Source: Intrasporangiaceae bacterium (lineage in GTDB: Bacteria > Actinomycetota > Actinomycetes > Actinomycetales > Dermatophilaceae). From it: DNA of 64,000 bases. The notes beneath the pieces were generated by a model. That model did not search any database and was not told the origin of the DNA. It was given only the letters and a program-made list of their open reading frames with translations. The DNA lies in assembly GCA_021324575.1 (NCBI GenBank), contig JAJPIW010000006.1, positions 5 to 64,004 of the forward strand. Direction: 5' to 3'. Shown piece by piece: positions 6,156 through 59,494 of this stretch (position 1 is its first letter; the number at the start of each line of letters is the position of its first letter). The position numbers were made by a program, and so were the translations under genes.

Positions 6156-6161
6156 AGGGGG

Positions 6162-37287: not shown

Positions 37288-37359
37288 GGGCCTCTAGCTC
37301 AATGGCAGAGCTGCGGACTTTTAATCCGTAGGTTGTCGGTTCGAATCCGACGGGGCCCA
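37288..37359 (+). tRNA. tRNA-Lys (anticodon UUU)
   Basis: A cloverleaf can be drawn by hand: acceptor GGGCCTC/GGGGCCC, D-arm GCTC-AATGGCA-GAGC, anticodon arm GCGGA-CTTTTAA-TCCGT, T-arm GTCGG-TTCGAAT-CCGAC and discriminator A. No CCA is encoded. Confidence 0.93.
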
Positions 37360-37406
37360 CAAACCTGCAGGTCAGGGGAGCCGACCTTCCGCGAATGCTC
37401 GCCCCG

Positions 37407-37436: not shown

Positions 37437-38618
37437 TCACGTCTCTTCCCGTCCTTGTGGACGTGAGGCCTTGGGTGCATCCGGGTCAGCCGACTCAAGC
37501 GCGGCGGCCACTGACGGATGGACAGCGCGCCGGCTCATGTAGACGTCTTGGGTCATCGAGATTCGGGCATGACCCAGCTGGTCTGCGATCATTCGCGCAC
37601 TGGCCCCTTGACCGTCGAGGATGGTCGCCACGGTCTTGCGGTAGGTGTGCGGTTTCACCCAGTCGAACTGCGTCCCCTTCCGAACCCGACGGAAGGAGGC
37701 ACCCACGTTGTTCTTGTCCCGGTATCCCCCCCTAGCGTCGGCGAAGACGGGTCCGTCATGTGTCGCAAACCGCTGCCGGCGAGCCGTGAGCATCGTCAGA
37801 CACCAGCCCGGTAGGACAAGGACTCTCATGGACGTCTTCGACTTGGGGCGCGACGCCACGATGCCCTTGCCCTTCACGCGAATCACGGTGCGCTGGACAG
37901 TGAGGACGCCCCGGTCGAAGTCGATGTCCGACCACCGCACCCCGAGGGCCTCACCGATGCGAAGACCGGTCGCGAGAATGAATCGAGCCAGTTCCGGCAG
38001 ATCCTTGCGTTGAGCGTCGCGGTTGCCGTCGAGAACGGCCAGCCACTCACGCACCTCGGCGGGGGTGAGAGCTCGTGGTGTCCTGTCGTGGTCGGACTCG
38101 AGCCGTCCGGCATCGCGGACGGGATTCGACGGGAGGGCGCCTTGGCGCGTCATGAAGCCGCATATGCCTGAGAGCACGGTGCGGGTGAGCTTCGCTGTGG
38201 CGTAGCCCTTGGTCTTGAGGACGCCTCGGAGAAAGCGATCGACTCGCGCGGTGGTCATCTCTCCGAGCCGTAGGCCCCCAATGCCTGGGATGACATGGCG
38301 TTCCACGGCGTCACGGTAGAGATCTAACGTCGATGGGGAGCGTGCGCCACGCTCGACGAGTGCCTCGAAGTCGTTCAGCCAGGCCCGAGCCCCGTCCTGG
38401 AGAGTGGATTTCGGTGAGAACTCCGCGTCAACGCCCATGGCGATCGCCTGCTCAACCGCCTTGAGCACCGTGCGTCGGGCCTCGGCCTTGCTGCGGCCTG
38501 TGGCCTTCACACGCCGGCGAACGCCCGCGTAGTCGCGGTAGTAGACCATTGCCAGCGTCCGCCCGGAACGCTCGCCGTAGATGACATCGCCGTGCTCCCC
38601 GAGCCCCAGCCGTCTCAT
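37437..38618 (-). CDS. int: Tyrosine-type site-specific integrase
   Basis: ATG at 38618 (MRRLGLGEHG) within track ORF 37437-38927. The catalytic pattern is TGLRIGEAL (R), KPHTYRKTVAT (H-x-x-R) and LGHARISMTQDVY (H...Y). Confidence 0.92.
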   Translation of the reverse strand: MRRLGLGEHGDVIYGERSGRTLAMVYYRDYAGVRRRVKATGRSKAEARRTVLKAVEQAIAMGVDAEFSPKSTLQDGARAWLNDFEALVERGARSPSTLDLYRDAVERHVIPGIGGLRLGEMTTARVDRFLRGVLKTKGYATAKLTRTVLSGICGFMTRQGALPSNPVRDAGRLESDHDRTPRALTPAEVREWLAVLDGNRDAQRKDLPELARFILATGLRIGEALGVRWSDIDFDRGVLTVQRTVIRVKGKGIVASRPKSKTSMRVLVLPGWCLTMLTARRQRFATHDGPVFADARGGYRDKNNVGASFRRVRKGTQFDWVKPHTYRKTVATILDGQGASARMIADQLGHARISMTQDVYMSRRAVHPSVAAALESADPDAPKASRPQGREET

Positions 38619-38905
38619 GCCACATCCGTCGACAATGATGCAACCCAGGCCTTGACGTCCTCGGGCCGATAGCGCAGTCGCCGCCCGACGAGGCGTCCCA
38701 GCGGACCTCGCCCCTGTCCCCGCCAGGAGTAGACAGTCTGCACTGGAACGTCGAGGAAGTACGCGACGTCGTCCACGGCCCAAAGGCGGTCCTCGGCCAA
38801 GGGACGAGCGCCGCCCGCCTCCGCGTGACGGATCACTCCCCCGTCCGACCGAAGGTCGATCGGAGGCTCGTCCACCCGTGCAGTGGATCGGGCAAGTATG
38901 GTCAT
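38615..38905 (-). CDS. xis: Excisionase / MerR-like HTH DNA-binding protein
   Basis: 96 aa with WAVDDVAYFLDVPVQTVYSWRGQGRGP. It overlaps the int start by 4 bp. Confidence 0.8.
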   Translation of the reverse strand: MTILARSTARVDEPPIDLRSDGGVIRHAEAGGARPLAEDRLWAVDDVAYFLDVPVQTVYSWRGQGRGPLGRLVGRRLRYRPEDVKAWVASLSTDVA

Positions 38906-43486: not shown

Positions 43487-45257
43487 GGGCGCGGTGGATC
43501 TCTGCTTCGACCCGCAACCGGTCGGCGGTCAGCTGCGCCGCGTCGGGGCGGGCGGTCCACGGGGTCAGGGTCAGGGCGATGGGTCGGGCCGCCCGCAGCA
43601 GCAGGATGGCCGTGCCGAACGGCAGGGTCCGCAGCCGGGCCGGTTCCAGGATCGGCACCTGCGTGGTCGACGTTGAGGTGCTGGTGTGCCCGTCGCGGCC
43701 TCGGCTGGTTGTGGTCGTGGCCTTGTCGCGTTGCCCGATCAGGGTGGACAGGTCTTGCAGGTCGCGGGCGTTGGACCCGCCGCCGAGGATGACCTTGACG
43801 ATGGCGGCGTCCCAGATCGCCGAGGCGGCGTGTTCGCCCCAGACGGCCCGGGCTTGGGCCAGGGACTGCAGGACCACGACGGTGGAGATGCCGGTGCCGC
43901 CGCCGTCGCTCATCAGGGCCGGCAGGGACGGCAGCGGGTAGTTCGCCGCCTCGTCCAGGACCAGCGCCAGCGGCGGGTCGAGACGGGAGCTGGCGGAGCG
44001 GGCAGCCAGCCGGCGCGCCGCCTCGGCGACGTCCTCGACGAACGCGCCGACCAACCCCGCGGTCGCGGCCGACCCGGTCGCGGTCCCGATCAGGTAGATG
44101 GTGCCGTTGCCGGTCAGGAACGTCTCGGGGTCGAAGTGCTCCCCCGGGCCGGGTGAGACAGCGTCCAAAACCAACGGGTCGGCCAGCGCCGCGAACGCGA
44201 TCGTGACCATCGCCCACACCGAGTCCCGCTGCCGCGGGTCGGCAGTCAGGATCGCGTCCAGCGCCTGATGCCAGGCGCCGGCCGCGCGAGGGTGGGAGGC
44301 CAGGATGACCACGGCCTCCTTGGCCTGCGCCGCCGACAACGACCACCGGTACAGGTCCGCCGACGTGTCCCCACCCAGGGCGGCAGCGTGCAGCAGGCAC
44401 CGGACCGCCTGCTCGGCGGAGGCCTGCCAGAAGGTCGAATCCGTCGTTCCCGCCGCGGTGGCCGACGTCAGCGCCTTGGCCCGGACCATCGCGATGTGCG
44501 GGTCGTCGCAGCCCCGGATTGGGGACCAGCGCGTCGCGGACCGGATGCCGCGAGCCAACCCCTGCGGGTCGAACACCGCCACCGGCCCGCGGCCCGTCCG
44601 GGCGTGCAACGTCGCCGTGAGGTTGTCCGGACGAGTGCTCGTGGTCAGGACCGGACCGGGCGCGTCCAGAATCATCGGGATCGCCAGGTGGATCCCCTTG
44701 CCCGACCGGGGCGGGCCGAGCACGACCAGCGAGTCCTCGACTGTGGCGTACACGTCAACCCCGCGACCCGCGCCCAGTCGGTAGCCAAGGTCGTTGACCC
44801 GCGGCTTGCTCAGCCCGGGACGCAGCGCACTGGCACGGGCCAACAGGGTCCGCGCGCTGGCCGCCCTTCGGATCTCACCGCGCGTCGCACACCCGTCGGT
44901 CCCCAACGCCACGACCGAAGGTCCTCCCCGGGCGAGCCGAAGGCAGACGCCGACGACAGCGATGGCGACCGCAATCACCAATGCCGTCGCCGACCAGTAC
45001 GCTGCCGGCGGCGGTGCGCCGGCACCCCAAACCCGATGCAACTCAAGTGGATTGGCCAAGGCCAAGAACGGTCTTGCGAGCGAGGGCCTCGGTCGTTGGC
45101 CTCCCGTGAACATGAAGGCGAGGTAGGCGCCGCCCTGAAGGACCCCCCACACGCCGCCAACCGTCAGTAGCGCTGCCCCAACAAGGTTGTCTGTCGAACC
45201 TGGATCCACCTTGGCCATCTGAACCGCCCTCTCGAGTCGTCGCAAGGGGAACGGCAC
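43473..45257 (-). CDS. Type IV secretion coupling protein (VirD4/TraG/TraD family)
   Basis: N-terminal TM helices, Walker A VVLGPPRSGKG and Walker B-like LALVLDEAANY. The start may be MAKVDPGS at 45218. Confidence 0.88.
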   Translation of the reverse strand: MPFPLRRLERAVQMAKVDPGSTDNLVGAALLTVGGVWGVLQGGAYLAFMFTGGQRPRPSLARPFLALANPLELHRVWGAGAPPPAAYWSATALVIAVAIAVVGVCLRLARGGPSVVALGTDGCATRGEIRRAASARTLLARASALRPGLSKPRVNDLGYRLGAGRGVDVYATVEDSLVVLGPPRSGKGIHLAIPMILDAPGPVLTTSTRPDNLTATLHARTGRGPVAVFDPQGLARGIRSATRWSPIRGCDDPHIAMVRAKALTSATAAGTTDSTFWQASAEQAVRCLLHAAALGGDTSADLYRWSLSAAQAKEAVVILASHPRAAGAWHQALDAILTADPRQRDSVWAMVTIAFAALADPLVLDAVSPGPGEHFDPETFLTGNGTIYLIGTATGSAATAGLVGAFVEDVAEAARRLAARSASSRLDPPLALVLDEAANYPLPSLPALMSDGGGTGISTVVVLQSLAQARAVWGEHAASAIWDAAIVKVILGGGSNARDLQDLSTLIGQRDKATTTTSRGRDGHTSTSTSTTQVPILEPARLRTLPFGTAILLLRAARPIALTLTPWTARPDAAQLTADRLRVEAEIHRAHATP

Positions 45258-45450
45258 CCAGGGGCCACTATGCGTGCAACCATCCCGGGACGCTCAAGTC
45301 GGCCAGAATCGAGCGATCATCCGGCTTCACGCGTGAGGGCAGCGGAGGGCGACCTTTCGACGCAGGACCTGTCGACCCACCATTCGGGATATGTGGGGGA
45401 TCCGTCCGGACATAGCCGATGGTCGGACGTGATGAGACAGACTTACGCGC

Positions 45451-45600
45451 ATGGATCGTGACGGTCATCAGGAGATCCATTACCGGGCCCTCGAAGGGGA
45501 CGTCGACGGCATTAGCGATCGACTCGCGGCCGGCGACGACATCAGCTGGACCGATAGACGAGGCTTCACGGCATTGCACTTCGCGGCCCAGCAGTCACAG
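45451..45600 (+). pseudogene. Truncated ankyrin-repeat gene fragment
   Basis: EIHYRALEGDVDGISDRLAAGDDISWTDRRGFTALHFAAQQ fits the ankyrin consensus (G-x-T-x-L-H-x-A). The reading frame runs straight into transposase-like sequence. Confidence 0.45.
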
Positions 45601-45913
45601 CGCAAGAAGCGTCCGGTCATCGTCAACGTCGCGGTCGCCCGCGAGCTGGCCGGATGGTGCTGGTCGTTGGCCACCCAGCCGCAGTAGATCCCGGCCCCCG
45701 AGCTGACCGTGGGGGTCAACGACCCGGACCGCCAGCGTGCGGAACGACCCGCGTCGAGGCTATGAGCAGCCGGTCCCACAACGACGTTCGCGTCGCCAGG
45801 GACGCGGTGACGCCCGACACTAGACTCGCGGCCTCCGTTCCCGCCGAACAGCCGGTCCTGCGGTACCCAACGGCGCATATCAGCCTTGACCACGCGTCGA
45901 CCACGACACGCTG
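45601..45913 (+). pseudogene. 3'-terminal remnant of an IS110-family transposase gene
   Basis: KRPVIVNVAVARELAGWCWSLA resembles the conserved C-terminal helix of IS110/IS116/IS902 transposases. No N-terminal DEDD domain is present, and frames are broken downstream. Confidence 0.4.
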
Positions 45914-46095
45914 ACCGGGCCCACGACCCCCACGCGTCACCGCCGTCCAAGAACCTCTCCACAAATCGAGGAAGTTCCGGCGCACCTATCTTGAGAACGA
46001 GGCACTCCATATCAGCCTCCGGCCGGTGGCCAACGAGTTGAACTGCCCTTCACGCGGGCGCGGTGAGGGTGCGGGAGGGTGCGAGCGGTCATGGT

Positions 46096-46593
46096 CTACG
46101 GGCCGAGTGCCGCCATGAGCGCGGGAACGTCTTGACGTGCCTCAGCTACAAAGCGAAGCATTGCTGACGGGGCGAGGTTGGCCCCGATCCACAGATACAT
46201 GTCGGGTTGGTTGTCGTTCTCGCTCACGCGGATAACGTCAGCACCCCCGGCTCCGCCGTCGGACTCTATGAAGGCCGTCCAGGGCCCAGGGCTTGCCGCT
46301 TGGACCCGCGCGCCGATAGCCGCGACGGATTCGGCCGGTGGGGCGTGTCCACCGAGCGCTTCGAGCAGCAGGGGGATGTCAGAGAACAGGTTGCCGATGA
46401 AACGCACGTCGTGACCAGACGCGGGCACGCCCTCACGGGTCACTCGCAGCTCCTCGTCCAATTCGTCCATCCGCACCCGGAGCCGACAGACCCCAGCAGG
46501 CATCTCCTCGACGCTGACTTCGAGCTTGCCCAGCGCGGAGAGCCGAGTCCTTATCGCTCTGACGTACGACTCGGTGAGCATCATGGGCCCCAT
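46096..46593 (-). CDS. Putative cognate immunity protein of the RHS toxin
   Basis: 165-aa ORF overlapping the RHS stop (an alternative ATG at 46584 gives an ATGA overlap). It has no signal peptide. The assignment rests on position only. Confidence 0.6.
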   Translation of the reverse strand: MGPMMLTESYVRAIRTRLSALGKLEVSVEEMPAGVCRLRVRMDELDEELRVTREGVPASGHDVRFIGNLFSDIPLLLEALGGHAPPAESVAAIGARVQAASPGPWTAFIESDGGAGGADVIRVSENDNQPDMYLWIGANLAPSAMLRFVAEARQDVPALMAALGP

Positions 46594-49500
46594 CCGAGAT
46601 AGCCGCCGTAGAAGGGGTAGTCCTTCCCTCCGAACCTGAGATTCTTAGGCACGTTCGGCGTGAGCTCACTCCATTCACAAGCACCGCCGCCCAAGCACAC
46701 GTCCACGTGTTGATAATTCATCTCGCCAACCGTGGGATTAAACTCGGGCGCAGGCTCGACGGAACCACCAGCCGCGCGAATCTCGCCAGCAGTCGTTGAT
46801 CGGAAACTGCCGTGGACGACACCTTGACCAGCCTCCTCAACTGTGCGCCCTTGGGCCCCTGAGAAGACCTCGCCAGCGTTCGGCATGGCGCTTTGGCCAC
46901 CGCGAGCGATGACTCTCGAATCCGAGATTAGGGGTTCTGCGGCAGTCGTCTCTGCAGCTCCGCTAGCGGCTTCTTCGGCGGCTCCTTCGGCTACTCCAAC
47001 CACACCTGCCTCGACGCCGTCGGTCAGGGGATCTAGGCCGCCTTGGGCAAAGTTTAGGACGGTAAGGAAAAAGATGCCAAGGTTGCTAGCTTCTTGTTTG
47101 CCGGTGGCTTCCTTCCAACTGGGATCTTCGTAGTCGATGCGGCTGCCGGGTTTGCCGTCGCTAAGTTGGCCGCCAATTTTGGCTACGGCTTTGGTCTTCT
47201 TGCCGACGATGAGGCCGTAGTCCACATTTGTGAGCCGACCCCTGCTATCTGTGCGGTATCCAGTGACGTGGTATCCGGTGAACGGTTTGTGGTGGTGGTG
47301 GTAGGTCTGGTAGGCGGCTCGGGCTTTGGCCGGTGCGGTGACCATGCCCATGCCGGTTTCGTCGCCGTACGCGTCGATTCCTCGTTGGCCGCTGGGGTCG
47401 CTGAGGGTGATGGGGCTGTTGTCGGCGTAGGAGTAGCCGTTGAGCGCGTTTCCGGTTTGGAGGATGGGGTCTAGGGAGGTGAAGCGTCCGAGGCTGGGTT
47501 GGTAGTCGCGGGCGCCGAGATGGACCGTGGTGACGGTGGACCAGGGGTTGGTGGGTGCGCCCAGGAACCCGTGGTCGGGGTCGGGCCAGGTGGGTGCGTT
47601 GGTGTCGCGCGAGTTGCCGAAGGGGTCATAGTGCCGCACGATGGTGGCGGCCGTGACGCCGTTTTCGGCGACGGTGGCGGTGCTTTGGGGGTCGACGTCG
47701 AACCAGTTGACGGTGGCGGTGGTGGAGCCGGCCGGTACGGTGCGGACGGCCACGGCGTGGCCCAAGGCGGTGTAGGTGCGGGTGGCGCGGGCGGTGCTCG
47801 CGCCGGGGGCGTAGTGCAGTTCGGTGTCGCCGAGGAGCAGCGTGGTGCCGGTGGTCGGGTCGGTTTGGGCGAGCAGGGTGCCGGACGCGTCGTAGGTGTC
47901 AGTCTGGGTGGCGGTGCCGATGTGGGTCGTGCCGAGGCGGTGTTCGGCGTCCCAGGTCAGGGTTTGGCCGGGGAGGGTGGTCATGGCGCCGTCGGCGTCG
48001 TAGGCGTAGGTGTCGGTGCCGGTGGTGGTCCAGCCGGTCCCGCCGGGGGTGGTGCCGGCCGGGGCTGTCGCGTGGGTGACCGCGGTGACGGCGTTGGGGC
48101 GGGTGACCCCGGCCCCGGGTGTGGGGTAGGCGTAGGTGTCGTTGGTGTCGGTGCCGCTGGCGGTGGTGGCATGCCGGTCGATCGAGGTGCGGTCGCCCAG
48201 TGCGTCGTAGGTGTAGGACTGCCAGTAGGGGGCGGGTCCGCCCAGGTTGCCGCTGCTGGGGCTGGTGGTGCAGCCGCCGGTTGTGGGGGTCCATGCCTGT
48301 CCCAGGCGCCCGGCCCAGTCGTAGGTGAAGCATTGTGTGTCGGTTGACGTTGATGCGGTGTCGACGACTTGGGTGATCTTGCCGGCATTGTCGAAGGTAT
48401 AGGCGCGGTTGGCCGCGACGTTGTTCGAGGAGGCGCCGGTGGTGGCTTCCACACCGGTGAGCCGTCCGGTGCCGTTCTCCCAGGTGTAGCTGTCGACCAG
48501 GTAGTTGTTGGCGTAACCGTGGGTGGTTTGCCCGAGCTGGCCCAGGGCGTTGTAGGCGATGGGCATGAGGTAGTCAGATCGCCCGGTGTAGGCGGCTAGG
48601 TTCCCGACGGTGGTGTACGACGAGGTCAGGGTTTCGGCGGGTAGTCCGGCCATGGCCGGGTCGGTCTGGGTGGCCAGGGTCTGGTCGGGGTTGTAGGTGT
48701 AGTTGGTGGTGTAGGTGGCTGCGGGGGCGGCTTGCACGGCTGGGATGCCGTATTTGGTGCCGGTGGGGTTGCCGGCGCTGTCGTAGCCGGTGATCGACTC
48801 GGTCCAGTTCCCGGTGGGTGTGTAGCGGGTGCTGGTCGACAGTTTTTCTTTGCCGTTGGGCACGGCCGGGTCGCTGTAGGTCCACCCGGCCAGCTGGGTG
48901 CCGCTGGTGCTTGTTCCGGCGTACTCGCCGGTGCGGTGGTCCAGTGCGTCGTAGCTGTAGGTGAGGGCCTGGTTGCGGTTGTCGGTGACGGTCAGGACTC
49001 GTCCGGCCAGGTCGTAGCTGGCGGTGGTGGTCCCGGCGTTGGGGTCGACGGACGTGGTTTGTTGGCCGAGCAGGTTGTAGGTCCAGGACCAGTGGTCTCC
49101 GGCGGTGTCGGTCAGGCCGGTTTGGCGTCCGGCGTGGTCGTAACCGTAGGTGAGGGTGTCGGCGGTCCCGGTCGGGGTTCCTCCGTGCCAGGTCAGTTGT
49201 TTGCTGGTGTTGCCGCGGGCGTCGAGGTACGTCGTGGTGGCGGTGCCGCCGGTCGGGGGGGTGGTGTCGACGTGGTCGCCGCGGTAGGCGTTGGTGGTGC
49301 GCCATTTCTCGGTGCCGAAGACCTTGAGGACGGTGGCGGTGGCCCGGCCGGCGCCGTCGAAGATGGTGTCGTTCTGGGTGGCGATGTTGCTTTCGCCGGC
49401 GCCGGGGACCAGAAGGGCGGCCGAGGGGACGGACCCCATCAGGTAGTTGCCGTTGGTGAGGACGGTTTGGCCGAGGGTGTCGCGGACGGTGTCGCTGACC

Positions 49501-52500
49501 AGGGTTCCGTTGCTGCCGGAGGTGCCCTGCTGGGCGCCCAAGGTTTGCGCTTCGGCGGGGACCTGGGTTTGGCGGACGCGGCCGAGCCCGTCGTACAGGG
49601 TGTAGGAGGTGACGGTGTTTCCGGTGGCGTTCAGGGTGGTCGTTCCGACGGCTGAGGTGCCGGTGGTGGACACGGTGTAGCTGTAGCTGGTGGACGGCGC
49701 GGAGGGGTAGGTGGCTTGGGCGCGCCCGGGCAGCCAGACCTGGCTGCGGCGGCCGAGCGGGTCGTAGGTGATGGTGGCCGTGGCCTGGTTCGGGTCGACC
49801 ACGGACGTCGGTGTTCCCCAGGCGGGGGCTGCTTGGGTGATCGTGTGCAGCCCGGCAGCGTCGGCGACATCGGATTGGGTGAGCGGGCCGACGTTGCCGG
49901 TCAGCGGCGCTACACCGGAGGGGGTGTAGCTGGTGGTGCTGGTACGCCCGAGGGCGTCGGTGCTGCCGGTTTGTCGGCCGAGGGCGTCGTACGTGGCATT
50001 TTGCTGGGCTGTTTGCCAGACGGCGGTGTCTTCGGTGGTTCCGGTGTAGCTGGTGGCTTCTTGGGTTTGGGTGAGGTCGCCCTTGGTCGGGACCTGACCG
50101 GTGAAGGTGGTGGCCCCGTCGTAGAAGGAGCGGGTGTCGTTGATCGTGTCGGTGTGATAGTTGGGGGTGGCGGTGCAGGTCACCCCCACGGTGTTCACGT
50201 CGGCCGGCAAGTTCAGACGGTTGGCGCCCGGGTTGTCGGCGTAGCTGGTGCGGGTGCACCGGTCGTCACCGGCGGTGGAGGTGTCGCCCAGGTCGTCGAC
50301 CGCGGTGACCCGCCCGTAGCTGTCGTAGGTGTTCTTGGTGTCGGTGACCCGGTTACCGCCGGCGGAGAGGGCGGTGTAGGTCGTGGTGTCGGCATCACCG
50401 GTGTGTCTGGCCGTGTTGACGCCGTCGTTGGCGGTGACCGCCGAAGCCCACGGGGTAGTGACCGCGTCGGACACCATCGGGCCGGGGCTCGTGCCGCTCA
50501 TCCCGTTGTAGATGACGGTTTCCAGGGCTTGCCCGGCCCACCACAGCGAGTCCGTCACATGGGTTCCGTTGCTGGCGGCCAGGGTGACGGACTTGGTGCC
50601 CCCAGTCGGGGAGGCCTTGTCCCCGTCCATGCCCTGGAAGTAGGTGTCGTCTTCGACTTGCTGCCCGGTCGGGTTGGCGGGGTCTCCATGAGTGACCCGG
50701 ACCTTGCTGTACCCGGCCCAGACCGACCAGGTCCGGGACGCGTCGGGGACAAGCGGTGAGGTGTCGTACCTCCAAGCGGGGGTGCTCAGGCTGTAGTTGT
50801 AGAACGTCTCGGTCGCGGGGGTGGTGGTGGCGCCCTGGTCGCCGGTCACGCCGTCCTCGGTGACCTGGGCAAGGGGGTACTTGTTGAACCAGTCCATGAA
50901 CGCGGCCCCGCCCGGCGGGGTCCACCACTGCGGGAAGCACCGCATGGTGTTGGTTTCGGGCTTGGCGGGCAGGTTGGTGGACGTGCATTGCGCCGGGGTG
51001 TAGCCGACGTTGATGGTGCCGCCCTGTTCGGTGCTGATGGTCGCGATGCGCTGCTTCATCAGCGCCGGCCACCCGCCGGTCGTGGCGGTCCGGTTCTGCA
51101 GCCAGATCCCGGAGAACTGGACGTCGGGCATGGTGGCGGTGCCGCCGACCAGTCCGGCGTGGGTGATCCCGGTCAGCCACAACATCGCGGAGGTGCCGTC
51201 GGTCGGGTTGGGGTAGGCCTGGTGCAGGCTCCACTTGTCCACCAGCACGTAGCTGCCGGCGGTGTTGCGGTACTGCGTGGTCACGGTGTCCAGCCGCTGG
51301 GACGACCAGAACGTGGGGTCGGTGATCGCGCAGGCGGAGACAGTGCAGCTATAGTCCCAGGGGACGTCCGGCCAGTCTTGGGGGTCGGTGCTGTTGCAGA
51401 CCGTGCTGGGCAGGCAGCGCGAGGCGGGGGTGAACACCACCTGCTCGGGGGCCGGTGAGGTCAGCTCGAACCCGTGCTGCATGCCGTAGTCGATCCTGGA
51501 CAGGAACCCGCCCCGGATGTACGACACGATCGTGGTGCCGTTCTGCTTGTAGTAGTTCGTCTCCGGGGTGTAGTACAGGGCCTGGCTGTTGCCGTGGACG
51601 TCGACGACGTAGTCCAGGTTCCACCGGTAGGCCTGGGTGCAGACGCTGGTGGCGAAGGTCGTCCCGTGGCAGGGTTCACCGGTGTTGTTGCCGAAGACCG
51701 GTGCGGTGAAGGTCGACTGGGTCGTCGGGTTTCCGGTGGTCCAGCCGGGCAGATGGTTCAGACCGAAGTAGTACTGGGTGCCGTCGGTGGTGGTCAGGCG
51801 CCAGTACTCCCCCTGGTTGGCACCGTTGACTGCGCCAGTCAGTTTTTCCACCTTGGTGTTGTCGTCACCTTGCAGGTGCCACCCGGTGGTCGGGTCGTTG
51901 ACGATGGTGCCGGAGTGACCGGCGAAGGTCACGGTGGCGTTGTCGCTCTTCCAGCACTGGTCGTTGGAGCCTGCCTGCCCGTCTTGCGCGCAGGGGACGT
52001 AGCGGCGTTCGATGGCGCCGCCGGCCTGCAGGGACCACCCGTCGCCCAGGGCGCTGGGCTGGTTGTTAGCGGCGGCCGTCTCCCCATCCAGCGACCCGGA
52101 GTCGTAGCTGAACGCGACGTCCGGTTCCGGTCCGGCCGCGGCCGGCGGCACCCGCAGCGGGTAGTTGTAGGTGAAGTCACCGGTCTGCTCGGTGGCCTGC
52201 CACGCGGTCGACGCCGACAGGGAGGTCGCGGAGAAGGTGCCGGTGCCGGACGCGTCCGGGGCGGCCGTTCCCGCCATCGCGGTCGCCGAGGCAAGCGGGG
52301 CCGATGCCGACGTGGACGAGCGTCGGGTGGCCGGCCCTGCCGGGGTGGGGTTGGCGGTGGTCACCGCGAGGACGACAGGGGTGTCGCCGACGGCGACGGC
52401 GGCGTCGTCGGTGCGGACCGTGTCACGGCTACCGGGTGAACCGCTGGGGGATACCGTCGCAGTGGACACGGCCTGCGGCTGCCCGGTCGGGCCGGTGGTG

Positions 52501-53009
52501 AGGGTGGTCCAGCGGGCCCGGCGGGCAAAGTCGGCGCCGAACAGCCGGGTCAGCTCGGCCGGGGCAAGGGACACCGCAACCGTGGCCGGGGCGGGAGCAT
52601 CCGTGCGCTCCAGCTGCACAGCCAGGCCGGGCACACCAGCCCGGCGCGGGTCGCCGGGCGACAGGATCTCGACGCGTAGCTGCGGGGCGTCACCGGTGAC
52701 GGCCAGGGGCCGGATGGTCAGGCCGCTTTGCCCGACTGATGCGCGGGAGGTGTGGGAGGTGGCGAGGGTGAACCGGCCGGCGGCTGGTCCCGGGCCGGGC
52801 GGGGTCACGCTGGCCCTGGACTCAGCTGGTCGGGCGTGGGCGGTGGCGTGGCCGCCGGGCACCGGTTTGATCGTCTGCATCCGGGGGTGGACGGCGCCCC
52901 CGGCAACAGCCGCCGCGAACCCTGCCGACGGGTGCAGGCCGGTGACCACCACGACGACGCTGGCGGCAGCCGCCGCAGCGCGACGCATCAGAACAGCACG
53001 ACCGGACAC
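46581..53009 (-). CDS. RHS/YD-repeat polymorphic toxin with a variable C-terminal domain
   Basis: About 2142 aa. The likely start is GTG 53009, 5 nt after AAGGAGG (the track starts at TTG 53027), followed by a signal peptide. There are many YD repeats (YDALGR, YDPLGR, YDLAGR, YDGLGR, YDADGA, HYDPFGN). The core ends ARDYQPSLGRFTSLDPI...YADNSPITLSDPSGQ and is followed by a tail of about 265 aa. Confidence 0.9.
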   Translation of the reverse strand: MSGRAVLMRRAAAAAASVVVVVTGLHPSAGFAAAVAGGAVHPRMQTIKPVPGGHATAHARPAESRASVTPPGPGPAAGRFTLATSHTSRASVGQSGLTIRPLAVTGDAPQLRVEILSPGDPRRAGVPGLAVQLERTDAPAPATVAVSLAPAELTRLFGADFARRARWTTLTTGPTGQPQAVSTATVSPSGSPGSRDTVRTDDAAVAVGDTPVVLAVTTANPTPAGPATRRSSTSASAPLASATAMAGTAAPDASGTGTFSATSLSASTAWQATEQTGDFTYNYPLRVPPAAAGPEPDVAFSYDSGSLDGETAAANNQPSALGDGWSLQAGGAIERRYVPCAQDGQAGSNDQCWKSDNATVTFAGHSGTIVNDPTTGWHLQGDDNTKVEKLTGAVNGANQGEYWRLTTTDGTQYYFGLNHLPGWTTGNPTTQSTFTAPVFGNNTGEPCHGTTFATSVCTQAYRWNLDYVVDVHGNSQALYYTPETNYYKQNGTTIVSYIRGGFLSRIDYGMQHGFELTSPAPEQVVFTPASRCLPSTVCNSTDPQDWPDVPWDYSCTVSACAITDPTFWSSQRLDTVTTQYRNTAGSYVLVDKWSLHQAYPNPTDGTSAMLWLTGITHAGLVGGTATMPDVQFSGIWLQNRTATTGGWPALMKQRIATISTEQGGTINVGYTPAQCTSTNLPAKPETNTMRCFPQWWTPPGGAAFMDWFNKYPLAQVTEDGVTGDQGATTTPATETFYNYSLSTPAWRYDTSPLVPDASRTWSVWAGYSKVRVTHGDPANPTGQQVEDDTYFQGMDGDKASPTGGTKSVTLAASNGTHVTDSLWWAGQALETVIYNGMSGTSPGPMVSDAVTTPWASAVTANDGVNTARHTGDADTTTYTALSAGGNRVTDTKNTYDSYGRVTAVDDLGDTSTAGDDRCTRTSYADNPGANRLNLPADVNTVGVTCTATPNYHTDTINDTRSFYDGATTFTGQVPTKGDLTQTQEATSYTGTTEDTAVWQTAQQNATYDALGRQTGSTDALGRTSTTSYTPSGVAPLTGNVGPLTQSDVADAAGLHTITQAAPAWGTPTSVVDPNQATATITYDPLGRRSQVWLPGRAQATYPSAPSTSYSYTVSTTGTSAVGTTTLNATGNTVTSYTLYDGLGRVRQTQVPAEAQTLGAQQGTSGSNGTLVSDTVRDTLGQTVLTNGNYLMGSVPSAALLVPGAGESNIATQNDTIFDGAGRATATVLKVFGTEKWRTTNAYRGDHVDTTPPTGGTATTTYLDARGNTSKQLTWHGGTPTGTADTLTYGYDHAGRQTGLTDTAGDHWSWTYNLLGQQTTSVDPNAGTTTASYDLAGRVLTVTDNRNQALTYSYDALDHRTGEYAGTSTSGTQLAGWTYSDPAVPNGKEKLSTSTRYTPTGNWTESITGYDSAGNPTGTKYGIPAVQAAPAATYTTNYTYNPDQTLATQTDPAMAGLPAETLTSSYTTVGNLAAYTGRSDYLMPIAYNALGQLGQTTHGYANNYLVDSYTWENGTGRLTGVEATTGASSNNVAANRAYTFDNAGKITQVVDTASTSTDTQCFTYDWAGRLGQAWTPTTGGCTTSPSSGNLGGPAPYWQSYTYDALGDRTSIDRHATTASGTDTNDTYAYPTPGAGVTRPNAVTAVTHATAPAGTTPGGTGWTTTGTDTYAYDADGAMTTLPGQTLTWDAEHRLGTTHIGTATQTDTYDASGTLLAQTDPTTGTTLLLGDTELHYAPGASTARATRTYTALGHAVAVRTVPAGSTTATVNWFDVDPQSTATVAENGVTAATIVRHYDPFGNSRDTNAPTWPDPDHGFLGAPTNPWSTVTTVHLGARDYQPSLGRFTSLDPILQTGNALNGYSYADNSPITLSDPSGQRGIDAYGDETGMGMVTAPAKARAAYQTYHHHHKPFTGYHVTGYRTDSRGRLTNVDYGLIVGKKTKAVAKIGGQLSDGKPGSRIDYEDPSWKEATGKQEASNLGIFFLTVLNFAQGGLDPLTDGVEAGVVGVAEGAAEEAASGAAETTAAEPLISDSRVIARGGQSAMPNAGEVFSGAQGRTVEEAGQGVVHGSFRSTTAGEIRAAGGSVEPAPEFNPTVGEMNYQHVDVCLGGGACEWSELTPNVPKNLRFGGKDYPFYGGYLGWGP

Positions 53010-53049
53010 GTAGGCCTCCTTGGTCAACGTCGAACAGACAGGAACACGG

Positions 53050-56000
53050 TTAGATGCCGCCGCCGGGAGGGAGGGCGGAAAGCTGGAGGTCGGTCAGGGC
53101 GCCGGCGTACGTGATCGGGTTCTGGACGGACCCGGTGAACCATCCCGACCCGGTCGAGGTCGTGGTGCCGCGGCCCACCCGGAACACCCCGGTGCTCGCC
53201 GCGGCGGGCGCCGTGACGGTGGCCGCAGACGCCGCCGGGGTCACCGTTCCCGAGGTCGGCGGGTTGACGTACAACCGCAGCTGGGAACCTCCCCGTCCGC
53301 CCGGGTCGTACACGACGGCCAGGGTGTCCCAGCCGCCGGTAGCGGGTGTCGTTCCGGCGGTGCACGTGCCGTTGAGGCAGGCCTGGTAGTTGCCGCTGCC
53401 GTCCACGCCCAGTGTGAGGACGCTGGCTGTGCCGGCGGCGTTGTCCTGGGAGGCCAATGTCACGTTCCGGGCGCTGGTCGGCACCTGGGCGTAACCGGAC
53501 ACGGAAAACCCGTTGGACACGTTCACCGGGGCCGTGTTTGCGGTGTCGGCCTCACCGGTGCCGGCGAACGTCATCGCACCACCGGCGCCGGCCGGCCCGG
53601 TGGTGGCCCACCCAACCGCGGAGGACAAGGTCAGCGTCGTCCCGGCGACGGTGTCGATCACGGCGGACGGACGCGACCCGGTCGCGTCGGTCACCCACGC
53701 ATGGGTCTGCGAGGGGGTGGATGCGTTGAGCGTGCCCGAGGACCCGGCGATCTTGCCCGCGTCCGGGTTCGAGGTCTGGTCGTAGGCGACGGCGCTGATG
53801 GCGAAGGTCCCGACCGCCTCCGGGACATAGTTGAACGTGTACGACCACGTGGTCCCCGACCCGGACGGGCACAACCAGTGGACCTGGTTGATCGCGTCCC
53901 AGCCGGTGGGATTGGACGGCGACGGGCACGACACGGTGCCCGGTTTGAGCGCCGGGAACGTCGGGGTCGCGGCGTCGGACCAGGCGATCCACGCCTGGGA
54001 CTGCGCGTCGGTTGTCGTGGCGATCGTGACCGGGGCCGCCTGCCCGACCGGCGGCCCTCCCGACGTCCCGGCGAACGCGGTCGCCGACACGGTCGGCGTC
54101 GCCGGGAGGGCGTTGTTCACAGTAAAGGTGCACGACGCGGCGGCCGAGGTGTTGTTCGCAGTCGACGGGGACGTGTTGGTGGCCGTCACGGTCACCGTCG
54201 CATTGGACCCGCTGGCGAACGTTCCCGCGGGGATGGGCGAGCCGGCCACGACCGTGCTGCCCGAGTTCGTCAGGGCGCTGGTCCACGACCATGACCCGGC
54301 CGTGAACTTGACGGTCATCTGCTTGCCGTCCGGGTCGGACACCGTCGCCTGCGGGGTGATCGGCTGGTCCCCGCGGACAGTCCCACCGCACGCCACATCC
54401 GGCGAGGCGGACTTCACCCCGGTCGGGGTGCCTGGGGCCGGGTCGCTGATCACGACCTTGCACCAGGTGGACACCGGCCCAGAGGGTTCGGGGCTGGTCC
54501 CAGTGAAGACCCCATCTCGGGGGTACCAGCGGAAGGCCAACGAAAAACCATGCGGGAACGAGGCGCTGCCGGCACCCACCGAGTAGGACACCGTGCCACC
54601 CGACGACACCGTCCCCGACGACCACGACGTGACCAAGGTGGTTTCGTCGGCTTGATACTCCTGGAAGAAGCCGTGGACCGCGTAGCCGGCCGGGTCAGCC
54701 AACTTGGCGTTCAGCGTGAACGCCTCGGACCCGTCGACGGTGATCGTTTGCTGGCTGGCGCATGTATCCGTTTGGGTTGTGCCGCCGTTCACCTTGTGGG
54801 ATACCGACACGGCCGACACGCTCGGCGGGGAGGTGTACGTCACGGTCATCGTGGTGGTGAAATCCTTCAGCGTGTACGCGCCAGCGACATCGTTGCCGCG
54901 GAACCCGAAGTAGTCGGTGTTGGTTCCCTTGGCCACCTCCGCCGCGACGTAGCTGGTCAACCCGGAGCCCGTCAACGTCCCCGTCGTGCCGCCCAGCGAT
55001 CCGGACGCCAGGACGGTCCCGGTCCCGATCGCGCCGGCATAATTCAACGCCGTCGCGTGATACATGTACGTGGGCTCGCTGGTGGACGTTCCCCCGCACG
55101 TGCACTTGGTCGCCGTCACGTAGGCGTTGGTCACCTCGGTGCCCAGAATGCTGGACAGGTCATAGTGGCCGACCGACCTCCAGTACACCGTGGTGCCCGC
55201 CTCGTTGGGGTTGCCCGTCTGCGAGGTGCACGCGCCGCACACCGTCCCATCGCTCTTGTACGCCGTCACGTTCGTGTCCCCGATCGTCGGGTCGATATCG
55301 ATCGGGAACGCCGAGGCCGGCTGCGCCGCGAGCCACACGGGGTCGATCGAGACCGTCAGCTGCCCGTTCGAGACACCCATCACCGCGTGCGCCTGCCCAA
55401 ACCCGTCGCCATCGGCCGTCACCACCAGCGGCGCGTACAGGTGCAGCTGCTGACCCAGGGCACCGCTCGGAGTCAGCGACCCGTCAGCCTGCGCCACCAA
55501 CGACGAGGCATCCGTCGACGAACTCGTCGACGACGACAGCATCGTCGACGACACCGACGACCACGAGCCCGTGTCGACAGCGAACGAGAACGACGACCCG
55601 GCCGAGGCGTCCTTGAGCAGGATCGACTCCTTCACCAGATCACCACGAACCTGATACGTCAGGTCCGTCGAGGGCCACACATTCGCATACGTCACCCCGT
55701 CCCCGGCCGTGTTGCGCACCGGCGCCACCGACGACCCACCAACCGGGGCGACCACGATCGACCCAGCCGAGGTCGTCACCGCCACACCTTGGGAGGAGGC
55801 ACCAAAATGAGCACCCCATGAGTTCGCCTTGTTGACCAACCCGCCCGAGACCGACGGGTCGGCCACCAACGTGTTGTCGATCGGGTGCCACGCACCCGCT
55901 GAGTCCTGGTAGTTCACCGCGGCATCGGAGGACACCAGGGTCTGCGTTCCATCCGCATTGGCGTAGTTCGTCCACGACAACCCGAGCCCGTTGGCGACTG

Positions 56001-56157
56001 AGCTCGCCGCGTCAAACCCCAGCGGAACCGTCGCGGCGACAGCGGCGCCAGGCCCGGCGGTAACCGCCAGACCAGCCAGCGCCAGGACCGCCGCCATCGA
56101 CCCAACCCTCAACCGCGCCAGCCTCGTCACGGGCCTGCCCCGCACAGGCAACCGCAT
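53050..56157 (-). CDS. Large secreted protein with a C-terminal LamG/concanavalin-A-like domain
   Basis: ATG at 56157 (MRLPVRGRPVTRLARLRVGSMAAVLALAGLAVTAG signal peptide). The body is Thr/Ser/Gly-rich and predicted beta-rich. The C-terminus reads LRLYVNP...VFRVGRG...GWFTGSVQNPITY. The gene lies 40 bp upstream of the RHS gene. Confidence 0.75.
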   Translation of the reverse strand: MRLPVRGRPVTRLARLRVGSMAAVLALAGLAVTAGPGAAVAATVPLGFDAASSVANGLGLSWTNYANADGTQTLVSSDAAVNYQDSAGAWHPIDNTLVADPSVSGGLVNKANSWGAHFGASSQGVAVTTSAGSIVVAPVGGSSVAPVRNTAGDGVTYANVWPSTDLTYQVRGDLVKESILLKDASAGSSFSFAVDTGSWSSVSSTMLSSSTSSSTDASSLVAQADGSLTPSGALGQQLHLYAPLVVTADGDGFGQAHAVMGVSNGQLTVSIDPVWLAAQPASAFPIDIDPTIGDTNVTAYKSDGTVCGACTSQTGNPNEAGTTVYWRSVGHYDLSSILGTEVTNAYVTATKCTCGGTSTSEPTYMYHATALNYAGAIGTGTVLASGSLGGTTGTLTGSGLTSYVAAEVAKGTNTDYFGFRGNDVAGAYTLKDFTTTMTVTYTSPPSVSAVSVSHKVNGGTTQTDTCASQQTITVDGSEAFTLNAKLADPAGYAVHGFFQEYQADETTLVTSWSSGTVSSGGTVSYSVGAGSASFPHGFSLAFRWYPRDGVFTGTSPEPSGPVSTWCKVVISDPAPGTPTGVKSASPDVACGGTVRGDQPITPQATVSDPDGKQMTVKFTAGSWSWTSALTNSGSTVVAGSPIPAGTFASGSNATVTVTATNTSPSTANNTSAAASCTFTVNNALPATPTVSATAFAGTSGGPPVGQAAPVTIATTTDAQSQAWIAWSDAATPTFPALKPGTVSCPSPSNPTGWDAINQVHWLCPSGSGTTWSYTFNYVPEAVGTFAISAVAYDQTSNPDAGKIAGSSGTLNASTPSQTHAWVTDATGSRPSAVIDTVAGTTLTLSSAVGWATTGPAGAGGAMTFAGTGEADTANTAPVNVSNGFSVSGYAQVPTSARNVTLASQDNAAGTASVLTLGVDGSGNYQACLNGTCTAGTTPATGGWDTLAVVYDPGGRGGSQLRLYVNPPTSGTVTPAASAATVTAPAAASTGVFRVGRGTTTSTGSGWFTGSVQNPITYAGALTDLQLSALPPGGGI

Positions 56158-56592
56158 GAATGGCCGACGCTGGACTCCGGCCGGACGCCGAAAGAACCCG
56201 TCGGTTCCGCTGATGCTGGCCCCAGCCTGCCCACTGCCCACAAGAACCCTCCCGGCGCTGGGGACGTGAACCCCCGGAAAATCAACTTCGATGCTGCGCA
56301 GCGGTTACCAAACCCGAGGATCCCCACCAGCGGCAGCAAGCACCGGAACTGGTGCCCGAGACCGGGATACAACCAGTCAGTGGCCGAGCGCCAGCGCTAC
56401 CGAAAATTTTACGAAATCCGTACCAACGTTTTACCCAACCATGGGGTATTTGGCGGCATATTCCCAGACTCTCCACCCTGAATTCTCAGGCAAGGCGGAA
56501 GTGCCCGACCGTACACTCCGCGGGATCCTCGTCGTCCTGCTGAGTACCCTGAACACTCAACTTCCCGCCGGAACCGTCGACAATCCTGGGAA

Positions 56593-58050: not shown

Positions 58051-58051
58051 A

Positions 58052-59494
58052 TCAGTTGACCTTCCGGGCGAGTGGGAGGGCGGCGGTGGTGAAGGCGCGC
58101 GCCTGTTGCCCGTAGAGGCGTCGGGTCTCGCACCCGGACTGGATGGCGGCGCGGCTGATCTCGGCGACGGCGGTCTCGAGCTGGTCGCGGCTGGGGGCGG
58201 TGATGGTGAGCAGGCCGGTGAACTTCACGTCGGCGTGTCCGGCGAGCAGGGCCCGTTCGCGGTCGAGGACGTCGGCGTGTTCGGCGTCGTCGGACAGGTC
58301 CGCGAGGGTGCCGATCTTGGCCTTCTGGGCGGCGTCGGTGACGTGCTCGACCTTGGCCTTGCGGATGGCGCGCATGGCGGCGTCGATCGGCACGGGCTCG
58401 ATGGTCAGCGACAGGGTCTTGCGGATGGCCGATTGGAAGACCAGCGCGTGCAGGAAGAACGGTGGGGTGGGGGTGCGGGGCCACTGGCTGATCCACAGGA
58501 CGGCGGAGTGGCCGGTGTCGTGTCGGAGGTGGTCCCAGTGCTCGTCCACGGCCATCGGTCCGGCGCTCTGGAGTCCGGAGCCGGGGCTGTCGCCCGTGTC
58601 GTGTCCGGGGTCGTATGCCGTGCGCAGGGTGGCTGCGAGCTCGGACTCGTCCAGCCAGCAGGCGACGGTGAGGTCCGCGGCCCTCAGCCCCGCCGACAGG
58701 GAGGTCATCTCCTGCCGCAGGAACGCTGCGGCGCCGGGCACCCCGCGGCCGGACTGACGGATGTGGTTGCGGGCTTTGCGCAGGTCGAGGCTGACCGCGA
58801 TGAGGGTGCGGTGGGTCGAGGAGGCGGGGACCACGGTCGTCATCAGGTGCTCGTACTGGGTCACGGCCCATCCCGTCGTCTTGGTCTTGTGGGTGTCCCA
58901 CCAGCCGGTGATGCCGCGTCCGGCGTCGGGCAGGGTCACCTCGAGCACCTGGATCCGCGTCCCGGTCCCCGATGCGGCCAGGGTGGCGATGGCGCGGCCC
59001 CAGCCGTGGACGCGGCGGGCTTGCTCGTCCGCGGACAGCAGGACGTAGGCCGGGTGGTGGACGAGGGCGACGGCGGTCAGGGTTTGGGCGTGTGGGTCGT
59101 GCAGCATGGCCGCGCCGGTGTCGGCGTCGAGGAGGAACCGGAGGCGTGCGGCGTCGCCGGGTAGGGCGAGGGTGCCGGCGGGTCGTGGATGGGCCGGTCG
59201 GGTCCGGAACCGGGTTTGGCCGGTGGCCCGGCGCAGGAGGTAGTGGGCGGTGGTGGGGACGGACTCGACCAGGGGCTTCCCGCCGGCCCGGACGAACGCC
59301 AGGACCAAGAGGCCCGCCCAGAGCGGCGAGGCAAGAGCCGCGCCGAGGGATCCGCCGATGAACAGGGCCGGCACGAGGACGGCAAGGGCGACGGCGACGC
59401 AGGCGACTCGGGACGCGGACAGCCCGAGGAGCAGCCCGCGGCGGGGTAGCCGCCCGAACCGGACGGTCAGGGCGGGGTGGGTGGTGTCGGTCAT
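58052..59494 (-). CDS. SCO6880-family conjugation protein (VirB3/VirB4 N-terminal-like membrane part)
   Basis: 480 aa with two N-terminal TM helices. It lies directly upstream of the ATPase (1-nt gap) and overlaps the VirB6-like gene by 4 bp. Confidence 0.7.
   Translation of the reverse strand: MTDTTHPALTVRFGRLPRRGLLLGLSASRVACVAVALAVLVPALFIGGSLGAALASPLWAGLLVLAFVRAGGKPLVESVPTTAHYLLRRATGQTRFRTRPAHPRPAGTLALPGDAARLRFLLDADTGAAMLHDPHAQTLTAVALVHHPAYVLLSADEQARRVHGWGRAIATLAASGTGTRIQVLEVTLPDAGRGITGWWDTHKTKTTGWAVTQYEHLMTTVVPASSTHRTLIAVSLDLRKARNHIRQSGRGVPGAAAFLRQEMTSLSAGLRAADLTVACWLDESELAATLRTAYDPGHDTGDSPGSGLQSAGPMAVDEHWDHLRHDTGHSAVLWISQWPRTPTPPFFLHALVFQSAIRKTLSLTIEPVPIDAAMRAIRKAKVEHVTDAAQKAKIGTLADLSDDAEHADVLDRERALLAGHADVKFTGLLTITAPSRDQLETAVAEISRAAIQSGCETRRLYGQQARAFTTAALPLARKVN

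Follow-up and report, generated by a model that had tools for sequence, protein, structure and literature searches.

An RHS toxin/immunity cassette as probable cargo at a hotspot between two motor genes of an actinobacterial conjugative element

Introduction

Why should genes resembling an interbacterial toxin system lie in the midst of the genes for a conjugation apparatus? The question is raised by a stretch of 64,000 nucleotides (the window) from an Intrasporangiaceae bacterium (GenBank assembly GCA_021324575.1, contig JAJPIW010000006.1, positions 5 to 64,004 of the forward strand). Within it, what appears to be an integrative and conjugative element (ICE) with a type IV secretion system (T4SS) carries a cassette of three genes between the gene encoding a VirB4-type ATPase and that encoding the VirD4/TraG-type coupling protein (T4CP). 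The three encode a large, secreted-looking protein with a LamG-like domain (hereafter the partner), an RHS/YD-repeat protein of the polymorphic toxin kind, and a putative immunity protein. An earlier note on this DNA had proposed that these genes constitute a polymorphic toxin operon carried as cargo, co-oriented with its flanking genes, and had offered as possible functions the killing of ICE-free neighbors, addiction to the ICE, or adhesion during the formation of mating pairs. Judging from the comparison with related loci described below, the ATPase/T4CP junction is a hotspot where many different cargos can be found; the cassette is one of these, probably a portable toxin/immunity system.

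Results

Variable contents of the ATPase/T4CP junction

Related loci were recruited through the ATPase, 80 from species-representative genomes and 80 from metagenome contigs, each collection holding at least 455-512 relatives. The genome loci, whose ATPases are 57-77% identical to that of the window, come mostly from Intrasporangiaceae, Microbacteriaceae, and other Micrococcales, plus metagenome-assembled genomes (MAGs) of Acidimicrobiia; the range across all 160 loci is 57-78%. When all window proteins were run against these loci by tblastn, a shared order emerged: NlpC/P60 - DUF6112 - (p269) - SCO6881 - SCO6880 - ATPase - gap - T4CP - p148 (- p222 - primase - HTH).

The order of the flanking genes is thus kept across the 160 loci, and what varies is the gap. 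The earlier note had suggested aligning homologous ICEs to learn whether the two motor genes adjoin one another elsewhere, and in many cases they do. Both genes are visible in 105 loci. With a correction for the unaligned N-terminus of the T4CP, the gap is less than 300 bp in 42 of them, 300-1000 bp in 30, 1-3 kb in 16, 3-6.5 kb in 13, and more than 6.5 kb in 4. Altogether, 17 of the 105 have more than 3 kb, filled with unrelated cargo. The gaps of relatives span about 0 to more than 10 kb, that of the window is 11.4 kb, and in 11 further loci no T4CP appears within at least 8 kb of the ATPase.

The genes that occupy the gap are diverse. They encode a GmrSD restriction enzyme with a double-GTPase (L012), pairs of tyrosine recombinases that mark nested elements (L015 and L016), a ThiF-family protein with an HTH regulator (L004), NhaA and SulP transporters (L062), a CDF transporter with a histidine kinase (L001), and a pyridine-nucleotide oxidoreductase (L060). 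One class of cargo, about 5 kb in size, recurs (L039, L048, L050, L053, and L078), its genes lying also at L035:11612-16472, L045:8010-11057, and L077:18265-21318. It consists of DprA and a signal-peptide protein of about 1014 amino acids (aa) whose C-terminal end has LAHTGGG, then a membrane span, then a charged tail. This protein, with its sortase-type anchor, has no match in Pfam and is a candidate for the conjugation adhesin of the ICE family.

The earlier note had also considered that the three genes might prove to be a universal, structural part of the T4SS. At a threshold of E ≤ 1e-5, however, homologues of the LamG-like, RHS, and immunity proteins were found in 0 of the 160 related loci. 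The kept flanking order, the variable gap with its unrelated genes, and the absence of the cassette from relatives together argue that the junction is a hotspot for cargo. Both flanking genes are intact in the window, where the alignments of relatives begin at residue 6-25 of the T4CP and extend to residue 480-485 of the ATPase.

Within the window, the succession described in the earlier note (ATPase, spacer, LamG-like protein, RHS protein, immunity protein, scar, coupling protein) was recovered, each feature lying where it had been placed or within a few bases of it (Table 1).

Table 1. Features of the ICE and its cargo, in window coordinates
Feature	Position	Strand	Basis or remark
tRNA-Lys (TTT)	37288..37360	+	ARAGORN; probable integration site, one end of the ICE
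Tyrosine integrase of the ICE	37437..38618	-	Pfam Phage_integrase (E 8e-20), Phage_int_M (8e-6)
Excisionase-like HTH_17 protein	38615..38905	-	Pfam HTH_17 (E 1.4e-9)
HTH protein	39178-40641	-	ICE backbone 3' of the coupling protein; order kept in relatives
DnaG-type primase	40922-42337	-	Pfam Zn_ribbon_DnaG (7.6e-23) and Toprim
p222	42319-42987	-	Small backbone protein
p148	43040-43486	-	Small backbone protein
VirD4/TraG-type coupling protein (T4CP)	ORF 43473-45257, probable ATG 45218	-	TraG-D_C (5.5e-29), T4SS-DNA_transf (1.2e-19)
Scar: ankyrin-like fragment running in frame into the remnant of an IS110-family element (last ~30 codons and 3' end)	45436..45934 (ORF 45436-45687)	+	tblastn
Putative cognate immunity protein, 162 aa	46096..46584	-	ATGA overlap with RHS stop; no signal peptide
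RHS/YD-repeat polymorphic toxin, 2142 aa	46581..53009 (GTG 53009)	-	Domain matches; signal-peptide-like N-terminus
Putative C-terminal toxin domain, ~115-119 aa	46584..46940	-	Residues ~2024-2142 of the RHS protein; 12 homologues, 56-80% identity
Pre-toxin linker, hydrophobic/Gly-Ala-rich segment	46941..47384	-	No conservation in RHS paralogues
Rhs-associated core ending ...LSDPSGQ, predicted autoproteolytic boundary	47385..47630	-	NCBIfam TIGR03696 (E 1.3e-15; 57.6 bits, cut-off 32.5)
Secreted-looking LamG-like partner (putative lectin arm), 1035 aa	53050..56157 (ORF 53050-56241, ATG 56157)	-	N-module common to single-chain RHS toxins, Ig-like repeats, C-terminal ConA/LamG-type jelly roll
Low-GC spacer 5' of the cassette	56158..56592		GC 59-61%; left cargo junction
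VirB4 C-terminal (ATPase) half, 485 aa	56593..58050	-	NCBIfam CD1110 family (E 8e-18), model positions 373-730 of 752
SCO6880-family protein, VirB4 N-terminal half	58052..59494	-	NF042935 (E 1.2e-118); CD1110 positions 200-363
SCO6881/VirB6-like protein	59491-60849	-	Mating-pore module
p269 (269 aa)	60795-61604	-	Mating-pore module
DUF6112	61607-61885	-	Mating-pore module
NlpC/P60 hydrolase	61970-63463	-	Mating-pore module

The RHS protein

The RHS gene begins 40 bp after the stop codon of the partner gene, with AAGGAGG 5 nt upstream of its GTG. Its product is recognized as an RHS protein through Pfam RHS_repeat (E = 1.3e-5, above the cut-off) and the YD repeat TIGR01643 (E = 3.6e-6), besides the Rhs-associated core. 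Among solved structures in the PDB, the closest is the Rhs protein 7q97 (E = 1e-9, residues 1664-1887), with Tse5 and 8h8a also matched; its closest solved relatives are Rhs proteins associated with type VI secretion systems (T6SSs). Searches of Pfam and NCBIfam found no cell-wall-binding domain on the RHS protein itself; the binding domains sit on the separate partner.

What marks this as a protein of the polymorphic toxin kind is the place where similarity ends. By BLASTP, the protein is 44-57% identical to three paralogues that are themselves linked to partner homologues. In the two complete genes (L082 and L084) the alignment runs from about residue 45 to residues 1876-1883, at the Rhs core; in the third (L086) it reaches only residue 1256, the gene running off the end of its contig. 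Conservation of residues 45-290 is confined to RHS proteins linked to a partner. Beyond the core there is no similarity to the paralogues, and the small genes that follow them are also different, which together amount to the defining architecture of polymorphic toxins. The base composition is in keeping with the exchange of modules: the GC content is 68% in the body of the RHS gene, 60% in its C-terminal region, and 65% in the immunity gene.

Between the core and the toxin domain lies a linker of about 150 aa, in which an HHHH run is found along with a segment that is hydrophobic and rich in Gly and Ala (…NLGIFFLTVLNFAQGG…GVVGVAEGAA…). Similar linkers, rich in Gly/Ala, lie ahead of the toxin domain in PT-HINT relatives. 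Perhaps the segment serves in entry or translocation.

The toxin domain and its downstream neighbor

The C-terminal domain occurs on more than one scaffold. Three of its 12 homologues lie behind PT-HINT domains, and several are stand-alone proteins of about 200 aa with hydrophobic N-termini. In both of the other loci examined, a homologue of the 162-aa protein is encoded directly 3' of the same domain, one behind a PT-HINT toxin (L090, 57% identity) and one behind a stand-alone toxin (L089, 41%), and in both its gene overlaps the stop codon of the toxin gene. The recurrence of a toxin domain on three scaffolds with the same downstream partner strongly suggests, as a matter of genetic linkage only, that the two are a cognate toxin/immunity pair. 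In L089 (positions 1-7142), the stand-alone domain is found within a row of small genes on the same strand, including one for an Imm53-family immunity protein, which looks like an array of small toxin/immunity pairs.

Neither the immunity protein nor the toxin domain has a match in Pfam or NCBIfam, even at E ≤ 5. A profile of the toxin domain met only chance-level matches to TIM proteins among PDB sequences. Its AlphaFold model is of acceptable quality (pLDDT 78.9), and Foldseek, comparing that model with the PDB, returned nothing at E ≤ 0.001, the best match other than antibodies being AvrPphF ORF2 (1s21; probability 0.54, TM 0.42). In the alignment of homologues, His43, Arg55, Glu66, His78, and an Asn (numbered within the domain) are invariant and Asp80 nearly so, a set compatible, if one may speculate, with a hydrolytic enzyme. 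An assignment as an R-S-E ADP-ribosyltransferase, from an apparent RGG...STT...PE pattern, was dropped, as the Arg of that pattern varies in the alignment.

The LamG-like partner

The earlier note called the first protein of the cassette a LamG protein. The 1035-aa reading frame is there, and through a profile of its family the C-terminus matches jelly rolls, but for the protein itself there is no direct match in Pfam, even at E ≤ 5, nor any in NCBIfam, and the label fits only about 15% of the protein. The match comes from a profile of six homologues, which hit jelly rolls of the ConA/LamG type in the PDB over its last ~155 positions (6lve, E = 6.5e-5; the pentraxin 3flp, E = 0.0028). Of the homologues, P0003 carries PF13385 and one has been named LamG by NCBI.

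More informative is the company that the protein keeps. Full-length relatives are few, six from a word-indexed search and seven cluster representatives from an exhaustive one. In each of the four contexts that could be read, an RHS gene lies 14-267 bp downstream of the partner homologue. T4SS genes are absent from the surroundings of these four pairs, which contain genes for luciferase-like oxygenases, a TrkA-domain protein, and an M48 peptidase, or for a response regulator and an aldehyde dehydrogenase. Moreover, an exhaustive profile search found that many proteins of 2000-3100 aa begin with the N-terminal 400-700 residues of the partner, and at least 10 proteins of 1600-2650 aa that have this N-module also align to the RHS core of the window. 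Pfam finds PA14, Laminin_G_3, and RHS repeats in three of four fused proteins scanned (P0031, P0035, and P0073) and PA14 with RHS repeats in the fourth (P0120). One fused relative has a GLEYA domain, and two shorter relatives of the N-module combine it with CBM96/DUF6531/RHS. The partner is thus tied to RHS proteins both by conserved neighborhood and by gene fusion, and most likely it is the sugar- or surface-binding arm of the RHS toxin, made as a separate polypeptide. A literature search for LamG with RHS in Actinobacteria returned nothing relevant.

Adhesion in the formation of mating pairs was among the functions offered by the earlier note. The surface adhesin would then be the LamG-like protein, by itself or together with the RHS protein. 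Aggregation substances and LPXTG adhesins are indeed encoded in Gram-positive T4SS operons, and the partner, co-oriented with the tra genes, secreted-looking, and equipped with lectin-type domains, has the appearance of one. One class of relatives even keeps its ~1014-aa LAHTG-anchored protein beside DprA at the same junction. Against this, no homologue of the partner is found in the 160 related T4SS loci. All four readable homologues are instead paired with RHS genes, apart from T4SS genes, and at least 10 proteins join the N-module to an RHS shell in one chain. Nor does the window protein show an evident motif for anchoring to the cell wall. The pairing and the fusions speak against the proposal, which is very unlikely.

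One might also suppose that the cassette is directed against eukaryotes, as an RHS cocoon of the Tc/insecticidal or teneurin-like kind with a lectin arm that recognizes host glycans. Tc toxins, RHS cocoons with lectin-type domains, act on eukaryotic cells. The PA14, LamG, and (once) GLEYA domains of the fused relatives are typical sugar-binding modules, and the toxin domain has no assigned activity. Nevertheless, a coupled downstream gene that co-varies with the toxin domain on three scaffolds is the signature of self-protection from a toxin active in the bacterial cytoplasm, and no TcA-like partner appears in Pfam, NCBIfam, or PDB searches. An anti-eukaryotic toxin is accordingly improbable, about as much so as an adhesin.

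Export and the relationship to the T4SS

If the cassette encodes a toxin delivered to other cells, how does it leave its own? Both large proteins and their homologues have N-termini that resemble signal peptides, with a positive N-region and a hydrophobic core of 12 residues (mean Kyte-Doolittle value 2.5-2.6, a heuristic measure only). By the same heuristic the immunity protein has none. These N-termini, the location of homologous cassettes away from T4SS genes, and their absence from related T4SS loci lead us to infer that the RHS protein and its partner are exported by the Sec pathway, without the T4SS.

The position of the RHS gene, co-oriented between the genes of two motor ATPases, does invite the thought that the toxin is a substrate of the ICE's own T4SS and reaches recipients through the mating channel. 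This is exceedingly unlikely in light of the signal-peptide-like N-termini on both proteins and the homologous cassettes that have no T4SS genes nearby. The 160 related T4SS loci, furthermore, lack the cassette, and the junction elsewhere holds unrelated cargo.

The two ends of the cargo

At one end of the cargo, between the ATPase and partner genes, is the spacer, in which the segment 56242-56592 has a GC content of 59.0%, as against 71-73% in the flanking T4SS genes; an A/T-rich string within it to which the earlier note drew attention starts at 56402. The spacer may carry the promoter of the cassette. A sigma-70-type consensus site was not found in it, by a scan that is uninformative for high-GC actinobacterial promoters.

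At the other end, the 877 bp from the immunity gene to the T4CP gene contain no convincing gene, and the small reading frames of 45.2-46.1 kb have no match in Pfam or NCBIfam, even at E ≤ 5. This region does contain the scar. The C-terminus encoded by its reading frame is 73-85% identical to annotated IS110 transposases (E down to 7e-8 by tblastn), the match to ankyrin being weak, and the stretch 45600-45934 (about 340 nt; 344 nt aligned) is 74% identical to a copy of the insertion sequence (IS) in a related contig (L123). Apart from this IS110 fragment, the DNA of the spacer and scar has no similarity to the gaps of relatives. A remnant of this kind at the T4CP-side junction indicates an earlier cargo that has since been deleted. 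It implies at least two earlier events at the hotspot, the arrival of cargo with an ankyrin gene and the insertion of an IS, followed by deletion. Among the immunity proteins known from polymorphic toxin loci, those with ankyrin repeats form one class, and the scar could be the relic of an earlier toxin cassette.

Might the present cassette, then, be no more than inert baggage, decaying since some past IS-mediated rearrangement? The scar adjoins it, and the RHS gene is frameshifted in one copy from another sample. Set against these are intact reading frames of 1035 and 2142 codons with coding-type GC contents at third positions (0.86-0.88), an immunity gene coupled through ATGA, a strong ribosome binding site, and 100% identity to a contig from an independent metagenome collection. 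Decay of this sort is highly improbable.

The ICE backbone

The conjugation and integration module occupies the minus strand from 64000 down to about 37300, in a window whose overall GC content is 70%. The start of the integrase gene lies 77 bp from the gene for tRNA-Lys. Given the presence of tRNA-Lys, integrase, excisionase, split VirB4, T4CP, VirB6-like protein, NlpC/P60 hydrolase, and primase, the element is by its gene content a T4SS-type ICE integrated at tRNA-Lys, with its far end beyond the window.

The protein that the earlier note took for a VirB4-like ATPase does match a VirB4 model, although it corresponds to only the C-terminal half of a split VirB4. The matches of both halves to CD1110 are below the equivalog cut-offs despite the E value of 8e-18. 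VirB4 is encoded by two adjacent genes across the ICE family, in the window (56593-59494) and in all 160 related loci.

Two other copies bear on the distribution of the family. A second member, 73% identical (L163, Ga0073909_10000007), comes from the same metagenome as the window's contig (L087), so related elements share one community. A copy of the ICE module is also present in an assembly filed as Stenotrophomonas maltophilia P13 (L057, JACEFY010000001.1), where its layout is that of the Microbacterium loci L051, L052, L055, and L065. Its appearance in a gammaproteobacterial assembly is likely the result of contamination or mis-binning and not of transfer across phyla.

Discussion

What best accounts for the toxin-like genes at this junction is that they form a portable RHS toxin/immunity system carried as cargo in an ICE hotspot, a reading to which we assign a probability of about 0.8. 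In such a system, the partner of about 1000 aa, with its carbohydrate-binding-type domains, would be exported by Sec and act as the arm of the toxin that binds surface or target. The 2142-aa RHS protein, likewise exported by Sec, would provide a shell, from which the C-terminal ~265 aa, carrying the toxin domain of ~115 aa, would be freed by cleavage at the Rhs core motif. The 162-aa immunity protein, translationally coupled to the toxin gene, would remain in the cytoplasm. Neighboring bacteria lacking the immunity gene would be intoxicated, giving carriers of the ICE a competitive edge and penalizing loss of the element.

That the cassette serves interbacterial antagonism that also penalizes loss of the ICE is a rather probable, though less secure, part of this account, put forward because of the analogy with contact-dependent inhibition (CDI), which is reported to stabilize mobile elements (PMC4927057), and with toxin systems on Gram-negative ICEs. 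Those systems include CDI on an ICE of Proteus mirabilis (PMC11278526) and T6SSs with Rhs-type effectors on ICEs of Bacteroidales (PMC4714493).

One can imagine a bolder version: a two-component, Sec-exported RHS toxin in which the separate lectin arm docks the cocoon on cell-wall glycans of neighboring actinobacteria and without which a toxin domain of a new class would not be delivered, while ICE-free neighbors die unless conjugation brings them the ICE together with immunity, thereby serving both maintenance and the selection of transconjugants. With all of its parts taken together, this version is unlikely, though not outlandish.

Several observations weigh against the view of the cassette as portable, functional cargo. 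Neither the genome nor the metagenome collection yielded a nearly identical ICE with an empty site, the best ATPase relatives being 73-78% identical, and because the best relative is only 78% identical, the boundaries and event of insertion are not reconstructable. No direct or inverted repeats flank the cargo, the only ones seen being internal to the RHS gene or pairs at chance level. A scan for promoters and terminators gave one promoter-like and one terminator-like site, at or below the expectation from shuffled sequence (such scans being uninformative for high-GC actinobacterial promoters). No relaxase and no second att repeat or ICE end was found in the window, in a search that did not include every reading frame, of an element that runs past 64000. 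The toxin domain has no Pfam family, no sequence relative in the PDB, and no significant Foldseek match; the signal peptides are judged by a hydrophobicity heuristic only; and the toxicity, neutralization, secretion, and cleavage ascribed to the cassette are predicted from sequence alone. Finally, a second copy of the element (L088, ENA ERZ27279686), with 0 mismatches over 20.9 kb, has a 1-bp deletion in a run of C's (window position 52381) that shifts the RHS reading frame after about residue 209. That copy also has an in-frame deletion of 24 bp in a Pro/Ala repeat of the SCO6881-family gene (window position 59690). The two deletions may be real variants or errors of assembly, the frameshift being perhaps a sign of decay.

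How novel is the arrangement? Cargo hotspots between core genes are familiar from other ICE families. The earlier note was not aware of any characterization of the arrangement in actinobacterial ICEs. It is less unusual than that implied, in view of these hotspots and of the polymorphic toxins documented on ICEs of other phyla (PMC11278526 and PMC4714493).

The ICE-borne CDI and T6SS loci resemble the present one as toxin/immunity systems, dependent on contact or proximity, that reside on a conjugative element, where the expected gain is the killing of element-free neighbors and surveillance against loss. Those systems, however, are Gram-negative and use type V (T5SS) or type VI secretion, whereas here export is presumed to be by Sec, and the locus lies at the VirB4-type/T4CP junction of an actinobacterial T4SS-type ICE. 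If it is true that the ICE gains from the toxin, then this would be a tractable Gram-positive case of a polymorphic toxin aiding the maintenance or spread of an element, the principle having already been set in Gram-negative bacteria.

The closest characterized analogue is the Gram-positive RHS toxin of the WapA/WapI type, reportedly described by Koskiniemi et al. in 2013 for Bacillus subtilis, together with related Sec-dependent toxins. A WapA of S. suis is also reported (PMC12704120). The likeness lies in a large YD/RHS protein, here with an N-terminus that resembles a signal peptide, in the lack of a T6SS, in the variable C-terminal toxin that comes after the Rhs core, and in the immunity gene directly downstream. 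The present system differs in that no cell-wall-binding domain was detected on the RHS protein, a separate, obligately linked, lectin-type partner of about 1000 aa being encoded upstream instead, and also in its unannotated toxin family, its actinobacterial host, and its location inside an ICE.

Another comparison is with the single-chain, lectin-armed RHS proteins (P0031, P0035, P0073, and P0120), of which no characterization came to light. These proteins share the N-terminal 400-700 aa of the partner (28-40% identity), their RHS core corresponds by homology to residues ~1400-1876 of the window protein, and three of the four scanned have a LamG-type domain (P0031, P0035, and P0073). Here, in contrast, arm and shell have separate genes with 40 bp between them, and the shell extends further at its N-terminal part, which begins with a signal-peptide-like stretch of its own. 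The secreted-looking lectin-type family is thus linked to RHS toxins in two ways, by neighborhood and by fusion.

Tc toxins (TcA with TcB/TcC) are also multi-gene RHS systems in which a toxin-encapsulating shell is matched with a separate large binding component. The partner, however, has no detectable similarity to TcA, and an immunity gene, present here, is absent from Tc toxins. Membership in a Tc complex is not supported, there being no match to TcA in searches of Pfam, NCBIfam, or the PDB.

Much of this locus, then, is of a kind already known, since ICEs have cargo hotspots elsewhere, other RHS toxins depend on Sec, and mobile elements are known to carry polymorphic toxins. What appears to be new is a hotspot in an uncharacterized family of actinobacterial ICEs, the division of lectin arm and RHS shell between two genes, and a toxin/immunity family without annotation. 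The ICE family is widespread and experimentally almost untouched, and the cargo at its ATPase/T4CP junction ranges over defense systems, transporters, nested recombinase elements, putative adhesins, and a probable interbacterial toxin. The toxin/immunity pair, outside Pfam, is common to RHS, PT-HINT, and stand-alone scaffolds, and in the present locus it is joined to the first of these, with a lectin-type arm encoded as a gene of its own.

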